From UHGV virus genome UHGV-1662908: a DNA stretch of 18,670 bases. One strand, 5' to 3'. Below are positions 7,378 to 13,607 of the stretch, piece after piece. The stretch is from a virus. Each line of letters starts with the position of its first letter. The first letter of the stretch is position 1. The notes beneath the pieces were generated by a model, which saw only the letters and a list, made by a program, of their open reading frames with translations, was not told where the DNA came from and searched no databases. The position numbers were made by a program, and so were the translations under genes.

Positions 7378-7559
7378 TTCTCACCTTCGCTTTTCTTGAA
7401 GCTGCGCTTTATGTCCGGCAGCGTGTAACATCGTGACTTTTCGTATTTACCGTTCGAGCTTACCAAAACAAAGCTGTTGCCGTCTTTTGATATGTACTCG
7501 ATGGTGAAAGTATTGAATGTGCGTATGCTGTATATTTCATCACCAACATTAAGTTTCAT
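7374..7559 (-). CDS. hypothetical protein (61 aa)
   Basis: ORF track 7374..7559; start overlaps the helicase stop; last in the minus-strand operon. Confidence 0.45.
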   Translation of the reverse strand: MKLNVGDEIYSIRTFNTFTIEYISKDGNSFVLVSSNGKYEKSRCYTLPDIKRSFKKSEGEK

Positions 7560-8980
7560 TTCTTACCTCGTCTCTTCATGTAATTAAGCAACTCTTCCTG
7601 TACCGATTTTTTCTCGTCCGTACGCGCGGCAACAACCTCGTCCAGCGTGTCTTTAGCGACGATGTGGTAGAGGAACACCGGGCGCTCGTGTCCTGCCTGT
7701 TTCTGACGGACTGGACCTATACGCTCAACGACCTGCAAATAGTGCTCAAGGTTCCATCCCTGACTTATGAACGCCAGATGATGCCCGCCGTCCTGTAAAT
7801 TTAAACCATGACCGGCTGACGCAGGGTGGACGCATAGTATTTCGATTTCACCACGGTTCCACGCTTCCATCTGCTTATTACCCTTAGCGCCTTTTGCAAA
7901 CGCCTGTGCCTGCGGGAAACGTTTCAGGATGCGTTCCAGTTCGTGCTTGAACTGATAAGCCACAAGCAGCGGCGCGCCCTGTAACTCCTCGACAATTGAC
8001 TCAAGCGCGTCAAGTTTCGTATCGTGCACTTTCTCCCAGTCTTTGGTTGCTTCGCCGTCTGGCCCTGACACATATACGGCACCGGAGGCAATCTGCAAAC
8101 ACTTCGACGTCTTCGCCGCAGCGTTAGCGGCTTCAACCTCCCCGCTCTCCAGTTCCGCGAATAACTTCTCCTCCATATCGATGTACGCCTGACGTGCTTT
8201 CTTCGGCAGGTCGATTTCCACTGGCACGATAACAGGCGCTTCACACCCGAACCACTCGGCAGCGTCAATCGTGAGACTGATGTCCTTCATCTTCTGGTGA
8301 ATTTCGTTATCCGCCCCCGGGCGCGCATGATACTCTCGCGCCATAGCGGACTTACCCTTCTGGACCGAATTAAACCAGCGGTCGGTGAACGCGGTGTATG
8401 AAGAACCCAGTCGCTCGCCAGCGTCAATAAACCAGTTCTGCCCCCACAAGTCCTTCAGGCCGTTTGGTGATGGCGTACCTGTCAGGTTGATAAAACGCTT
8501 AACCTTACCGAATGCCACTTTGCTAAGCGCCTTTGCCCGCTTGCTTCCGCCGGAACGGCTGCGGAATGATTTAAGTTTCGTGCTTTCATCGGCAACGATA
8601 ACCGTAAAAGGCCAGTCGTCTTTGCCGTAGTAGTCAATCAGCCATTCGATAACTTCATAGTTCGTGCACACCACGTTAGCGTATGACTCCAGCGCCGCGA
8701 TGCGGCGCTTCTCCGAACCCGTGGCATCGACGACACTCAGGCATGGGAATCGCCATTTCTCTTGTTCTGCTGGCCATGTGCCGGACGCAACGCGCAGCGG
8801 AGCTAGTATTAACACGCGGTCGTCATCGTTAAGTTGGCCGTTGCGGAACAGTCGGTTTAATGCCCACAGTACGCTGCCAGTCTTCCCGGCACCCATGCTT
8901 GCCCATATGTTGCAGCGATTGTGCCGCAACATAAACGAAGTCATGAGCTTTTGGTACTCGCGCCTTTGAAACTTAGACAT
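7556..8980 (-). CDS. SNF2/DEAD-like superfamily 2 helicase (~474 aa)
   Basis: Track ORF 7556..9298, but its first ~106 codons overlap the upstream gene and look non-protein-like; likely start is the internal ATG (MSKFQRREYQ) at 8980. Motifs: Walker A GAGKTGS, DExx box VIVADEST, SNF2-type motif III LTGTPSPN. Confidence 0.8.
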   Translation of the reverse strand: MSKFQRREYQKLMTSFMLRHNRCNIWASMGAGKTGSVLWALNRLFRNGQLNDDDRVLILAPLRVASGTWPAEQEKWRFPCLSVVDATGSEKRRIAALESYANVVCTNYEVIEWLIDYYGKDDWPFTVIVADESTKLKSFRSRSGGSKRAKALSKVAFGKVKRFINLTGTPSPNGLKDLWGQNWFIDAGERLGSSYTAFTDRWFNSVQKGKSAMAREYHARPGADNEIHQKMKDISLTIDAAEWFGCEAPVIVPVEIDLPKKARQAYIDMEEKLFAELESGEVEAANAAAKTSKCLQIASGAVYVSGPDGEATKDWEKVHDTKLDALESIVEELQGAPLLVAYQFKHELERILKRFPQAQAFAKGAKGNKQMEAWNRGEIEILCVHPASAGHGLNLQDGGHHLAFISQGWNLEHYLQVVERIGPVRQKQAGHERPVFLYHIVAKDTLDEVVAARTDEKKSVQEELLNYMKRRGKK

Positions 8981-9656
8981 GATTAGCCTCGTAAACTGCT
9001 TTTGCGAGCCCACGCGGAGTAAGGCTGCGGATTGTTTTTGTTCTGGCGCTCTTTCCGCCGAGTTTAGCCCAACCAGGGTTATCTCCGCTGCCCACGGCAA
9101 CCTCGGCAACGTTAGGCATAACAAACCCATTTCCGGCCCACAGGCACGTCTTTTTAACATATGCATCTCGCGCCGGGATAACATCCGGGAACATTGGATG
9201 CGTGTCGTCTTCGGGTAAATAGCCGCCGTATTCGTACGGATTGAACGCGTAGTCAGGCTTACGCCATAAAGACGAAAGAACGCTAACCGGGTTCTCAATC
9301 ATATACGGTACGTTGTACTTTTTAGCCAGACGCGCAGCCACTTTGCATGTAATCACGGCCTCTACCTGAAACGTTGGGTTCCTTCTCCGCTTCGTTTCGA
9401 AATGGGCCGCGCCGCTAACGGCTAAATCTGTGCATGGGGGGAACGCGAAAATAATATCCGGCGCAACGTCGAAGTCGAATTTATTATCAATCCACGCGTT
9501 TATATAGTGGATATTTTCATGTTCAACTTTTGCACCCAATCGAGCGTAGTCTCCGTGGTCGGCGCCGTCGTAGTTGAAACAATAGCAAGTATGGCCCGCT
9601 TCCGCCCACGGTTGGGCCATAATGCCCGAACCGTCAAACAATGACCAGACAATCAT
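8973..9656 (-). CDS. SAM-dependent DNA (cytosine-5)-methyltransferase-like protein (227 aa, short)
   Basis: ORF track 8973..9656. Motif I-like SLFDGSG (FxGxG), motif IV-like FPPC with candidate catalytic Cys, motif VI-like IENP. Shorter than typical C5-MTases, so the target-recognition region may be minimal or the function different. Confidence 0.5.
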   Translation of the reverse strand: MIVWSLFDGSGIMAQPWAEAGHTCYCFNYDGADHGDYARLGAKVEHENIHYINAWIDNKFDFDVAPDIIFAFPPCTDLAVSGAAHFETKRRRNPTFQVEAVITCKVAARLAKKYNVPYMIENPVSVLSSLWRKPDYAFNPYEYGGYLPEDDTHPMFPDVIPARDAYVKKTCLWAGNGFVMPNVAEVAVGSGDNPGWAKLGGKSARTKTIRSLTPRGLAKAVYEANHV

Positions 9657-9844
9657 TTCAGCACCAGCACAAGCTCTTTACGCCCGAACGCCGTAACGTT
9701 ACCCGTTACATCTTCGATAACCAGTTTACCGTTCGACTCGACGAACACAGTATCGACGGCAACAGGCCGACGGGTCTTAACGTTGAAAATCATGTCGCCC
9801 GGTACGATGTCACGTGCTGGTTTGCGGTCATATTCGTGTTTCAT
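9653..9844 (-). CDS. hypothetical protein (63 aa)
   Basis: ORF track 9653..9844; first gene downstream of promoter A, with AAGGA RBS about 9 nt upstream of the ATG; stop overlaps the start of the methyltransferase-like gene. Confidence 0.45.
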   Translation of the reverse strand: MKHEYDRKPARDIVPGDMIFNVKTRRPVAVDTVFVESNGKLVIEDVTGNVTAFGRKELVLVLK

Positions 9845-10394: not shown

Positions 10395-10522
10395 TCCAGC
10401 ACCCACAGATAAATTGCGATGAACATACCCAATACGGTGACAATCATGCCGTATTGACCCTCGTGACAGTAGACACCGGCGGCGAATCCCGCCAGTAATA
10501 CGATAATCAGTTTACTTAGCAT
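10391..10522 (-). CDS. small hydrophobic membrane peptide (~43 aa)
   Basis: Not in track. My translation MLSKLIIVLLAGFAAGVYCHEGQYGMIVTVLGMFIAIYLWVLE; its ATG overlaps the last codons of the DNA polymerase gene and its stop overlaps the next ATG. Confidence 0.4.
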   Translation of the reverse strand: MLSKLIIVLLAGFAAGVYCHEGQYGMIVTVLGMFIAIYLWVLE

Positions 10523-13500
10523 AACGTTTCATCTCCGCACCTTCCGCTACAAGCGGGAACCCCTCAGCCCACTCAGGCAGCGAACACATTAATTTTTCCA
10601 GTTCAGCCACCGTGTAATCAGGCGTATCTGGAGTTTCACACACCAGTTCATCGTGTACCGAAAGCACGATGGGATACCCGCCACCCTCAACATTAATCAT
10701 CGCATATGCTAGTAAATCACGGCACAACGCCTGAACAATGTTTTCACAGGCTTTGCCGCCGTGGGTGTACAGGGTAGTCCATTGGCGGGTTAACTGGTTT
10801 TCACCTTGGTACTTGATTCGCACATTCGTGTTTACCCGTCCGTCTTCGTCTGTTTCTTTTGTCACGCTAACGCCGATCCCCGGATACGAGAGGATACGGC
10901 CTGACGGCAACTCCATACACAACCACCAACCGGGAACCTTCCTACCTGATGAATCGGTTTCTACTGTTCTCCAGATTCGGATAGCGCGCTCGCCATTCTT
11001 GCGCAAGTGTGCTCCCGCCCAAAATTCACGACCAGGATTGCGCACAGCGGCTAAAATTCCGTCTTTAAGGTCCCGCCAGAACGCTACTGTTTCCGGGTGT
11101 GACTCGCGCCACATACGCTTGATCGCGTCACATGTGCGCCACACTTTCTTGTCCAGAATATACGATGGTCTGTCGTCCTTTTCACCTGGATGCGGTGGCC
11201 GCTTTGCTTCCTGGATGCGTGCCCACTCGTACCCGCGTGCGGTAGCGGCCCATATGTGGCCCGGGAATGTACCGTCCATTGTTTTTGCCATCTCAATAAG
11301 GTCAAGACCTAAGTTTTTAGCGAACGTAACGAACGCTCCGACGCCTCCCTCGTAGCCGAGGCCAAGCTCGCAGTTATGCGCCACAAGAAAGCCAGAGTCT
11401 GAGGCTATAAGAAAACGGTTGCCGTCTTCCACATCAATCAGGTCGTACACCGGCTCGCAGTAGGTTAATTTCCCGCTCAAGTTCAGCAATGCGGGCAACG
11501 GCTGCATCATACTTTCGTTGAAGCTCGGGTATTTGCCGTCTGTTTCGGCAGTTTTCAGAACGGCTGACAAACCGAATGTTTCCAGGTTCGTAGTTACCGT
11601 CTGTGTCGATTCTATCCATTTCGAGGTTCGGGTCATCCCAGCTTTCCAGAGTTTGAACATATCTAAGAAAAGACCTTTTATCAGTCCTCCACTGGTCGAA
11701 TACCGTGATGCCTCTTGCCCCATAGTTTTTATAACCCTTATCCCTGGGGCTTGTTGTTCGCGTGATAGCCGCGGACAGCCGGTTGAGTAATCGCGTTCTG
11801 TGCGCATCATCCGGCATTGCGTCTTCGTAGCAGAAATACTGTTTACGATATTTTTTTGTTGCTTCAAGGGCGCAGCGGTTGCATTGAGTGGTTTTACCCG
11901 CTCTGACGTTGTCATAATAGACCCGCCCCGGCATCCCCCCGCAATCACATTGGACGAGTAGTTGTCTTTGGCCTTGTCGTTTTGGTAACTCGCGCAGGAT
12001 AACCAAGCGTCCATACCTCTCTCCAGGGCGAGGCCCATCATATATCTGTTTGAAGCGAGTTGCTTTGCCTGCTTCCAGGAATGCGCCAAGATTTTGTGGT
12101 CTTCGGTCATTAGCACCCCGTCCACATTTATTACCGGTTTCCACCCCATAAGGTGCGCGCCTTTTGTATTCACCCATTTTTCACCGCTCCATACTTTATC
12201 TGTTGATGTAACCGCCATAATATCCTTAAATCCGCCATCGGTCAAAACTTGGGTATGACGGTGAAGGCACGCTTTACCAATCTGGCGCAAGTCTTTACGT
12301 TCTTTCTTAATGTCGTCTGGGTCCATGCCAAACATCTTACCTGCGGTTACGCAATAAATATCCAGCCCGGCGCGGAACGTATCTAGCGCGGTTTCTTCGC
12401 CTGCAAGCCACGCAAGCCCTCGGCCCTCAACGTTAGAATAATCGGCAACAACAAACTTATGTCCTGCTTCCGGTATGATGCAGCTACGCACCGTCGATGC
12501 CGTTAATTTAGCGACATCAAAACGGCGGTGCGCGCGGCCCTTAAGTAACGCTGAAATGCCTTTATCCAGTTCATCATCGTGATAGTACCCGCGCGCGAGG
12601 TTCTGCGGTTGGAAGCCTTTACCCGCCCATCGCAGAGTGCGTTTTGCCCCGCCGTACTGCAAGCAACCGCGGCGTCGGTCGTCAGAAGAGCGGCCCAACA
12701 GCAGTGGGTTATATTTCGTTGATGCGGTGGACGCGGCCCCGAGGCGCATTTCTATAATCATGCGAGCATCGTCGGGTAAATCATCGTCTGCCAGCAGGTC
12801 ATTCAGTGTCGACTTCTGTGCGTTATGGATGCGGTGCGCGGGTGCGAGTTCACGCAGAATCGGAAGGAAGTCTTTACCAGTAAGCGAGCCGCCGTATTTT
12901 CGTTGGGCTTCTTCCTGTAACTGTGCCTTGTGCTTCTCCACGGCTTCAATCGCGGCTTCCGCCAGTGCGACGTCAACCTTAAACCCGCGGTCATTGATTA
13001 ACTGGTCCAGCTCCAGTACACGGTCCTCGAACTCGGAGTTACCCCAACGCGGCAGTTTATGGAAGACTTCACGCATCGCGGTGATGTCGCTCACGGCGTA
13101 CTTGATGAACAGCGCCCACTCGTCAGGGTGTGTTTCTGCGGTGTATCGACGGATTTTGTAGTTCTTCGGCGTCGGTTTAGAGAAACGCTGAATCAGCGCC
13201 TTGCCGCGTTTGTCTTTTGCATTGTCCGCCGATACGCCCAGCACTTCGCACAGCGCATCAAGTGACCCAGGCAGCGCGTGACGAAACGCTCGAATCATAG
13301 TGTCGATGGTATTTCTCGGTTTGATATCCACACCCCAGCAGTGCTTCATAACTAGCCTGTCGAACATTAAAAAGTTATGGCCTACAATTCTCATACGCCC
13401 GCGCATAACATTACGTAGCGCAACGCGTAGGCTTATTGGCATTACTGGTTCGGAAGTGCAATCCCATACTTCTACAGGCCCATCATCAACGGCGTATGTA

Positions 13501-13607
13501 CATATTATAATCTCAGTTGTTGCGTGTTCCGCGTATGCGTATGACCCTACTTTCTTTAGGTCAGCTTCAGAGAATGTTTCGGTATCAAGATACAATAAAT
13601 TAGCCAT
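10512..13607 (-). CDS. family A DNA polymerase with N-terminal 3'-5' exonuclease domain, interrupted by an intein (precursor 1031 aa)
   Basis: ORF track 10512..13607. Exo motifs YLDTETFS, GHNFLMFD, YAVSDI; polymerase motif A VVADYSNVEGRG; motif B split as RQIGKA / CELGLGYEGG; motif C VLSVHDELV. Confidence 0.9.
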   Translation of the reverse strand: MANLLYLDTETFSEADLKKVGSYAYAEHATTEIIICTYAVDDGPVEVWDCTSEPVMPISLRVALRNVMRGRMRIVGHNFLMFDRLVMKHCWGVDIKPRNTIDTMIRAFRHALPGSLDALCEVLGVSADNAKDKRGKALIQRFSKPTPKNYKIRRYTAETHPDEWALFIKYAVSDITAMREVFHKLPRWGNSEFEDRVLELDQLINDRGFKVDVALAEAAIEAVEKHKAQLQEEAQRKYGGSLTGKDFLPILRELAPAHRIHNAQKSTLNDLLADDDLPDDARMIIEMRLGAASTASTKYNPLLLGRSSDDRRRGCLQYGGAKRTLRWAGKGFQPQNLARGYYHDDELDKGISALLKGRAHRRFDVAKLTASTVRSCIIPEAGHKFVVADYSNVEGRGLAWLAGEETALDTFRAGLDIYCVTAGKMFGMDPDDIKKERKDLRQIGKACLHRHTQVLTDGGFKDIMAVTSTDKVWSGEKWVNTKGAHLMGWKPVINVDGVLMTEDHKILAHSWKQAKQLASNRYMMGLALERGMDAWLSCASYQNDKAKDNYSSNVIAGGCRGGSIMTTSERVKPLNATAAPLKQQKNIVNSISATKTQCRMMRTERDYSTGCPRLSREQQAPGIRVIKTMGQEASRYSTSGGLIKGLFLDMFKLWKAGMTRTSKWIESTQTVTTNLETFGLSAVLKTAETDGKYPSFNESMMQPLPALLNLSGKLTYCEPVYDLIDVEDGNRFLIASDSGFLVAHNCELGLGYEGGVGAFVTFAKNLGLDLIEMAKTMDGTFPGHIWAATARGYEWARIQEAKRPPHPGEKDDRPSYILDKKVWRTCDAIKRMWRESHPETVAFWRDLKDGILAAVRNPGREFWAGAHLRKNGERAIRIWRTVETDSSGRKVPGWWLCMELPSGRILSYPGIGVSVTKETDEDGRVNTNVRIKYQGENQLTRQWTTLYTHGGKACENIVQALCRDLLAYAMINVEGGGYPIVLSVHDELVCETPDTPDYTVAELEKLMCSLPEWAEGFPLVAEGAEMKRYAK
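11373..12269 (-). mobile_element. intein (299 codons) inserted in motif B of the DNA polymerase
   Basis: Boundaries computed from track coordinates: Cys447 (CLHRHTQVLTDGGF, block A) to Asn745 (VYDLIDVEDGNRFLIASDSGFLVAHN, blocks F/G), followed by +1 Cys; block B TEDHKILA at aa ~501-508. Confidence 0.75.
11434..12177 (-). CDS. HNH homing-endonuclease-like ORF lying inside the intein but in a different reading frame from the polymerase/intein frame
   Basis: ORF track 11434..12177 (247 aa); frame differs from the polymerase ORF ((13607-12177) mod 3 = 2). Contains GRLVIL...CDCGG...QCNRC and GYKNYGARGITVFDQW...MDRIDTDGNYEPGNIRFVSRSENCRNR, typical of phage HNH endonucleases. Recognisable part starts ~aa 50; the first ~50 codons overlap intein blocks A/B. 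Confidence 0.6.
   Translation of the reverse strand: MGEYKRRAPYGVETGNKCGRGANDRRPQNLGAFLEAGKATRFKQIYDGPRPGERYGRLVILRELPKRQGQRQLLVQCDCGGMPGRVYYDNVRAGKTTQCNRCALEATKKYRKQYFCYEDAMPDDAHRTRLLNRLSAAITRTTSPRDKGYKNYGARGITVFDQWRTDKRSFLRYVQTLESWDDPNLEMDRIDTDGNYEPGNIRFVSRSENCRNRRQIPELQRKYDAAVARIAELEREINLLRAGVRPD

Follow-up and report, generated by a model that had tools for sequence, protein, structure and literature searches.

The window analyzed here, an 18,670-nucleotide stretch of UHGV virus genome UHGV-1662908, comes from a Kagunavirus-like siphophage (Guernseyvirinae) and contains a short gene that very probably encodes an active, S-adenosylmethionine (SAM)-dependent orphan DNA cytosine-5 methyltransferase of the PHROG 757 family. 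The predicted enzyme would combine a DNMT3-like core with a target-recognition region of about 40 residues. Its open reading frame (ORF) starts with ATG and encodes 227 amino acids; a preliminary description of the same DNA had placed it correctly without giving the strand, which is the minus strand. That description had also called the product C5-methyltransferase-like, and the motifs, their conservation, the predicted fold and homology to a tested enzyme all support the proposal. The gene itself is already known: near-identical copies are annotated in public Kagunavirus and Jerseyvirus genomes (as 'DNA cytosine methyltransferase', 'C-5 cytosine DNA methylase' or 'Dcm'), and one member of the family has been characterized. 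The protein is 98% identical to its counterpart in Kagunavirus BCH953P1, and the nucleotide identity of the region is 88-91% to Kagunavirus genomes (BCH953P1, EC3-1, phiWAO78-1, SZH-1) and 86-87% to genomes of Jerseyvirus, also a member of Guernseyvirinae. The only modestly new points are a two-allele cassette within the protein and the variable slot in which the gene resides.

The three motifs reported earlier were found in the translation: FDGSG at residues 7-11, PPC as part of FPPC at residues 72-75, and ENP at residues 121-123 (Table 1). Alignment of 90 family members sharing 35-70% identity showed that C75, E121, P123, P140, Y166, W173 and P181 are invariant, and that conservation reaches at least 90% at P73, N122, D164, K168, T170, R210, S211, P214 and G216. 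In their canonical forms motif I is F-x-G-x-G and motif VI Glu-Asn-Val, to which FDGSG and ENP correspond. The preliminary description had made its proposal depend on conservation of the catalytic cysteine and of the SAM-binding motif: Cys75 belongs to the invariant set, and FDGSG is kept throughout the close subfamily. Outside this subfamily motif I takes the form F-D-x-[S/T]-G, where x is Y, F or H. Alignments pair C75 with the PC motif in DNMT3B, HaeIII, E. coli Dcm and the C5-methyltransferase of phage K1ind2. Judging from the alignment, the region of D30 at the end of beta-2 is expected to provide the acidic position for binding the SAM ribose; in the wider family 106 of 118 sequences have Asp in the N28 column. 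The protein has no QxRxR, the canonical motif VIII; the corresponding strand (residues 170-175 in the model) carries a family-specific D-A-Y-V-K-K-T-C-L-W. The C-terminal IRSLTPRG with the last helix resembles motifs IX and X by inspection only (compare GRSW of DNMT3A and GNSV of M.HhaI), and this region was reached by no sequence or profile alignment with DNMT3B, HaeIII, DNMT2, E. coli Dcm or the K1ind2 enzyme. Family profiles gave marginal matches only, confined to motifs I-IV, to DNMT3B, HaeIII and DNMT2. The motif set and the number of homologues are far above chance expectation.

The family is large. A search of 5.8 billion proteins returned 6,933 homologues at E≤1e-3, and 2,023 clusters were counted at 50% identity; among the matches listed, most full-length members have about 200-260 amino acids. 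It is carried by 1,528 phage records, including Guernseyvirinae, Drexlerviridae, Dhillonvirus, rV5-like myoviruses, Klebsiella siphoviruses and others. For distant members the genomic context, on short contigs, offered little to read, and one of them lies in a PolA/DUF3987 replication module. A search against C5-methyltransferase profiles, suggested in the preliminary description, gave a divided answer. PHROG 757 ('DNA methyltransferase') was matched over the full length of the protein (residues 1-226, E 4.6e-86), and Pfam PF00145 was matched in part, by residues 3-102 against profile positions 3-98 (E 1.4e-3), but below its gathering threshold. Nine of 29 family members match PF00145 at E≤0.01, the best with 1.3e-6. 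A single-sequence phmmer search of the PDB with the protein found nothing.

Structure prediction, likewise suggested earlier, yielded a confident model. AlphaFold2 with 29 sequences gave a mean predicted local distance difference test score (pLDDT) of 89.5 and a predicted template modelling score of 0.88, and the order of strands is that of a class I methyltransferase. The loop at residues 191-200 is poorly defined (pLDDT 56, the lowest in the model) and is followed by the terminal helix 215-225. When the model was compared with the PDB by Foldseek, the first 47 matches were methyltransferase domains of DNMT3A, DNMT3B, DNMT3C or plant MET1, whereas generic Rossmann methyltransferases aligned over only about 115-125 residues. 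The model thus assigns the protein to the C5-methyltransferase fold. With the family profile, an alignment to DNMT3B was obtained for the N-terminal 85 residues, with SLFDG facing SLFDG and PPCTDLA facing SPCNDLS. Identity to the catalytic domains of DNMT3A and DNMT3B is nevertheless 12-17%, and these domains comprise about 285 amino acids, in contrast to 227 in the phage protein, which has no accessory domain. DNMT3 enzymes act in oligomers, have CpG specificity and carry regulatory domains. Canonical C5-methyltransferases differ as well: M.HhaI, M.HaeIII, E. coli Dcm and the K1ind2 enzyme have 300-470 amino acids, a large target-recognition domain, and the QxRxR and GN motifs. A comparison with E. 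coli Dcm by hhalign covered 24 columns around motif IV with a probability of 1%, and BLASTP found nothing significant. On these alignments, 'Dcm-like' should be taken as a functional nickname and not as a statement of orthology to E. coli Dcm.

The experimental evidence comes from a homologue in phage K42, whose identity to KarlJaspers/Bas06 is 95.4% (bioRxiv 10.1101/2023.08.16.553469; Cell Rep 2024, 43:114857). Mutants of K42 escaping retron Ec86 all had a disrupted 711-bp dcm gene; expression of K42 Dcm increased 5-methylcytosine (5mC) in the multicopy single-stranded DNA (msDNA) of Ec86, as measured by liquid chromatography-mass spectrometry, and activated the retron (10.1101/2023.08.16.553469). 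A C82A/E128A/K175A/K176A mutant produced neither the rise in 5mC nor retron activation; K175 and K176 had been selected from a superposition with DNMT3A as residues that bind the substrate, and 34 of 35 phages sensitive to Ec86 encode such a Dcm (10.1101/2023.08.16.553469). The KarlJaspers gene, bas06_0055, has 711 bp and is annotated as 'Dcm-like C5 cytosine methyltransferase'. Its product of 236 amino acids falls in the same size class as the window protein and is 60% identical to it over the full length (E 5e-105). The four mutated residues C82, E128, K175 and K176 correspond to C75, E121, K168 and K169. This identity, together with the four matching residues, places the window protein in a family with demonstrated C5-methylating activity. 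Both are orphan enzymes of siphophages, that of KarlJaspers being a lytic E. coli phage, and they share the DNPGWAK allele of the cassette described below. The two differ in phage family (Drexlerviridae and Guernseyvirinae, respectively), and no related helicase adjoins the KarlJaspers gene. KarlJaspers, moreover, has its own Dam, and its GATC content is normal; in the Kagunavirus genomes examined, GATC is almost lacking.

Site counts were also made for the first 50 kb of KarlJaspers. CCSGG is strongly depleted, with 2 sites where 12 are expected from a Markov model and 52 from base composition; CCWGG is at expectation (125 sites against 122).

Comparison of the gene with those of LM02P1, LM08P2 and SM86 revealed an abrupt drop of identity near its 3′-end: 88-97% in nucleotides 1-480, 67% in 481-540, 40% in 541-600, and 80% at the 3′-end. 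This pattern reads as the clean exchange, by recombination, of about 120 nucleotides encoding approximately residues 161-200. In these comparisons the alleles are DNPGWAK and GYSDQHNK, and both recur in the family at large. In a set of 122 close homologues the segment, which lies between beta-7 and the C-terminal element, reads ...DNPGWAKLGGKS (the DNPGW allele) in 54 and ...GYSxQHxKLGGKS in 59, and these two forms cut across overall similarity. In the model, the loop of lowest confidence falls in the cassette. Because canonical enzymes hold the target-recognition domain at this location, the cassette is the best candidate for a miniature recognition element, and it probably acts as one. A bolder proposal is that, of all autonomous C5 DNA methyltransferases, this family is the smallest class, its specificity being set by the cassette of about 40 residues and the two alleles conferring two different targets. 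We consider this possible but doubtful; if true, it would mean that a natural plug-in recognition domain sits on a DNMT3-like core. The two alleles in any case provide a simple way into DNA recognition by such a small protein. By analogy with the K42/KarlJaspers enzyme the target would most likely be CCWGG, and this assignment is extended to the window protein solely because the two share a cassette allele.

The gene occupies a slot, between the start of a SNF2 helicase gene (position 8980) and a 63-codon ORF (position 9653), that is variable across Guernseyvirinae. In the window and in many relatives it holds the short methyltransferase gene. In K1ind2 the slot is filled with a canonical C5-methyltransferase of 309 amino acids, which has no BLAST similarity to the window protein and the same 8-nucleotide overlap with the helicase gene, and in EM1 and Psm105 with an HNH endonuclease. 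In fPoEco01 and many Jerseyviruses the slot is empty and the 63-codon ORF abuts the helicase. Even among near-identical genomes the methyltransferase gene may be present or absent. These comparisons indicate that it is accessory cargo in a hot spot, which would be co-expressed with the surrounding operon and is not partnered with the helicase. The helicase is a neighbour and not a functional part of the methyltransferase. Two candidate partnerships were considered and rejected. A functional coupling with the SNF2 helicase is contradicted by the variability of the slot and by the unrelated helicase near the KarlJaspers dcm. A restriction-modification pair with the neighbouring VRR-NUC protein (a 'restriction endonuclease' in some records) is contradicted by its retention in genomes without the methyltransferase; both VRR-NUC and helicase persist there. 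No cognate nuclease was found among the neighbours (the 63-residue protein, VRR-NUC and the SNF2 helicase). The suggestion of an orphan enzyme in the preliminary description has therefore held: no partner nuclease was found, and the gene comes and goes among relatives.

If the protein acts as predicted, Cys75 in the FPPC loop would attack C6 of a flipped-out cytosine, Glu121 of ENP would protonate N3, and SAM, bound by the FDGSG loop together with the acidic residue that terminates beta-2, would supply the methyl group. The D-x-Y-x-K-K-T-x-x-W segment would stand in for canonical motif VIII. Translated from an operon of the replication module, the enzyme could methylate both newly made phage DNA and host DNA. 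The likely benefit would be protection from restriction enzymes cutting at its target site, anti-restriction being the default reading for an orphan phage methyltransferase. The one established consequence of the family is a cost: methylation of msDNA is known to trigger abortive infection by retron Ec86 (Eco1). Phages with the gene are accordingly predicted to carry 5mC in their DNA, which matters for cloning, restriction analysis and nanopore basecalling, and to be sensed by this retron, which matters for the choice of phages for therapy or engineering.

A number of observations weigh against an active anti-restriction enzyme specific for CCWGG. The PF00145 score of the protein is 18.6 bits against a gathering cut-off of 22, a threshold which the K1ind2 enzyme passes with 60.9 bits. 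A search of NCBIfam with the protein gave no match, and BLASTP and hhalign showed no sequence similarity to E. coli Dcm or the K1ind2 enzyme past motif IV. Activity has been demonstrated for the K42 enzyme of Drexlerviridae only; to members from Guernseyvirinae, including the window protein, it is extended by analogy. The CCWGG specificity of K42 was itself deduced from msDNA site mutants rather than mapped directly, and the host was dcm+ MG1655 (10.1101/2023.08.16.553469). The genomes bear no footprint of CCWGG protection: observed to expected ratios were 0.73-0.95 in four genomes of Guernseyvirinae that carry the gene and 0.71-0.93 in three that lack it. Equal frequencies are, however, to be expected if the hosts already methylate CCWGG. 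Lastly, Kagunavirus phages are reported to be highly sensitive to the restriction-modification systems tested, and for Drexlerviridae no simple link between methyltransferase genes and restriction resistance was reported (BASEL papers).

The last three observations, on the CCWGG footprint and on restriction in the two phage groups, would also fit an active C5 DNA methyltransferase selected for something other than anti-restriction, such as a replication, packaging or repair mark, an effect on host gene expression, or the countering of a host defence outside classical restriction. Methylation of CCWGG by the hosts, if that is the target, would point the same way, as would the position of the gene inside a replication/recombination operon between VRR-NUC and the SNF2 helicase. 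We nonetheless regard such a role as rather unlikely. The gene is dispensable, as many close relatives lack it or have an unrelated C5-methyltransferase or an HNH endonuclease in its slot, and this pattern is typical of accessory counter-defence cargo and not of a core replication function; the restriction-modification systems of BASEL, furthermore, are a small panel. It is hardly credible that the protein is a catalytically dead methyltransferase fold with a DNA-binding or regulatory function only. The degenerate motif I of the wider family and the score below the Pfam threshold could be cited in its favour, but every aligned family member has the catalytic Cys and Glu, the close subfamily keeps the full FDGSG, and the activity of the homologue depends on its active site. 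Only slightly less remote is a substrate other than DNA, for instance tRNA, as for DNMT2, or free nucleotides: DNMT2 scores below the DNA enzymes, in msDNA it is the DNA part that the homologue methylates, and a swapped variable cassette fits the recognition of a DNA sequence.

The same fold and chemistry might also use carboxy-S-adenosylmethionine (carboxy-SAM) supplied by E. coli CmoA to make 5-carboxymethylcytosine, instead of or beside 5mC, as does CmoX of Synechococcus phage S-B43 (PDB 8YF3). In a related extension of the cassette proposal, less likely than that proposal itself, the conserved Arg210 would let the enzyme accept host-made carboxy-SAM in addition to SAM; this, too, appears improbable. 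The equivalence of Arg210 to R350, the CmoX residue contacting the carboxymethyl group, is putative, since the profile comparisons, made with E. coli Dcm and the K1ind2 enzyme, align motif IV only. DNMT3 also has an Arg at this position (GRSW). CmoX differs in several respects: its solved chain has 333 residues (the paper numbers residues up to R350 or beyond), it has SPPC where the window protein has FPPC, and its partners are a phage CmoA and a ligase, neither of which was found among the ORFs of the window or in the annotation of the fully annotated relative fPoEco01. Its product is 5-carboxymethylcytosine, in contrast to the 5mC made by the tested homologue, and the latter was formed in MG1655, which is CmoA-positive. 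The best structural match of the window protein, DNMT3, is a SAM enzyme. We consequently think carboxy-SAM use quite improbable and retain the orphan SAM-dependent methyltransferase as the preferred explanation.

Table 1. Positions of the methyltransferase gene, its motifs and its neighbours in the window.
Feature	Position	Strand	Basis
Short C5-cytosine DNA methyltransferase (PHROG 757, 'Dcm-like'), coding sequence with stop codon	8973..9656	-	ORF list and translation
Motif I FDGSG, residues 7-11, SAM-binding loop after beta-1	9624..9638	-	aligns with SLFDG of DNMT3B
Motif II acidic position, N28-Y-D30, end of beta-2	9567..9575	-	D30 aligns with Glu of DNMT3B 'SEV'
Motif IV FPPC, residues 72-75, predicted catalytic Cys75	9432..9443	-	C75 invariant in 90 members; equals C82 of K42 Dcm
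Motif VI ENP, residues 121-123, Glu121, strand 118-122	9288..9296	-	E121 equals E128 of K42 Dcm
Signature D164-x-Y166-x-K168-K169-T170-x-x-W173, before and on beta-7	9138..9167	-	K168/K169 equal K175/K176 of K42 Dcm
Exchangeable cassette, DNPGWAK allele, residues ~161-200, putative miniature target-recognition element	9057..9176	-	drop of nucleotide identity
C-terminal IRSLTPRG and last helix, residues 209-225, motif IX/X-like	8982..9032	-	R210, S211, P214, G216 at least 90% conserved; helix 215-225
8-nucleotide overlap ATGTCTAA, methyltransferase stop/helicase start	8973..8980	-	direct sequence reading
4-nucleotide overlap ATGA, 63-codon ORF stop/methyltransferase start	9653..9656	-	direct sequence reading
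63-amino-acid ORF, upstream neighbour of the methyltransferase	9653..9844	-	homologue PE1_035 in fPoEco01
SNF2-family helicase, 474 amino acids, downstream of the methyltransferase in the same operon	7556..8980	-	Pfam SNF2-rel_dom, E 7.4e-12

The gene is part of a compact replication/recombination operon of the minus strand with the order primase-helicase, DUF2800 nuclease, Enc34-type single-stranded DNA-binding protein, PolA, VRR-NUC, 63-codon ORF, methyltransferase, SNF2 helicase and a 61-codon ORF. An overlap of about 8 nucleotides between the methyltransferase stop and the helicase start had been noted before, and it measures exactly 8 nucleotides, ATGTCTAA, with the TAA at 8975..8973, the helicase ATG at 8980..8978 and a GAGG Shine-Dalgarno sequence upstream. 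An identical overlap is annotated in phage EC3-1, whose annotation agrees with the helicase start used here. The stop of the helicase gene overlaps the 61-codon ORF by ATGA (7556..7559), in the same way as the 63-codon ORF overlaps the methyltransferase gene. The resulting chain of four ORFs joined by ATGA, ATGTCTAA and ATGA suggests translational coupling. A scan for a dedicated promoter or terminator gave nothing above shuffled expectation. An intein is annotated in the SNF2 helicase homologue of several Jerseyviruses (Salmonella phages vB_SenS-Ent3, vB-SeS-01 and the Kenya-K52 group); the locus is about 1 kb longer there, and these genomes lack the methyltransferase.

Two further features of the window were observed. 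The PolA ORF (10512..13607, minus strand) encodes a family A DNA polymerase of 1,031 amino acids against 727 in EC3-1, owing to an insertion of 299 amino acids at 11373..12269 (minus strand). The insertion starts with Cys (CLHRH...), ends with ...VAHN and is followed by Cys (CELGLGY), where EC3-1 reads GKAC-ELGLGY; by sequence it has the hallmarks of an intein. A Pfam scan of the insertion detected no significant intein or homing-endonuclease domain. The polymerase of fPoEco01 is of the same size and has no intein annotation.

The other feature is a near absence of GATC, with 3 sites in the window against 62-73 expected. Seven Guernseyvirinae genomes of about 44 kb contain 4-11 such sites (observed to expected ratio 0.03-0.07), compared with a ratio of 1.00 in KarlJaspers, which has its own Dam. 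The pattern resembles strong selection against sites of the Dam/MboI type, within a group of phages that has no adenine methyltransferase in the region examined. CTAG is low too, with ratios of 0.25-0.47.

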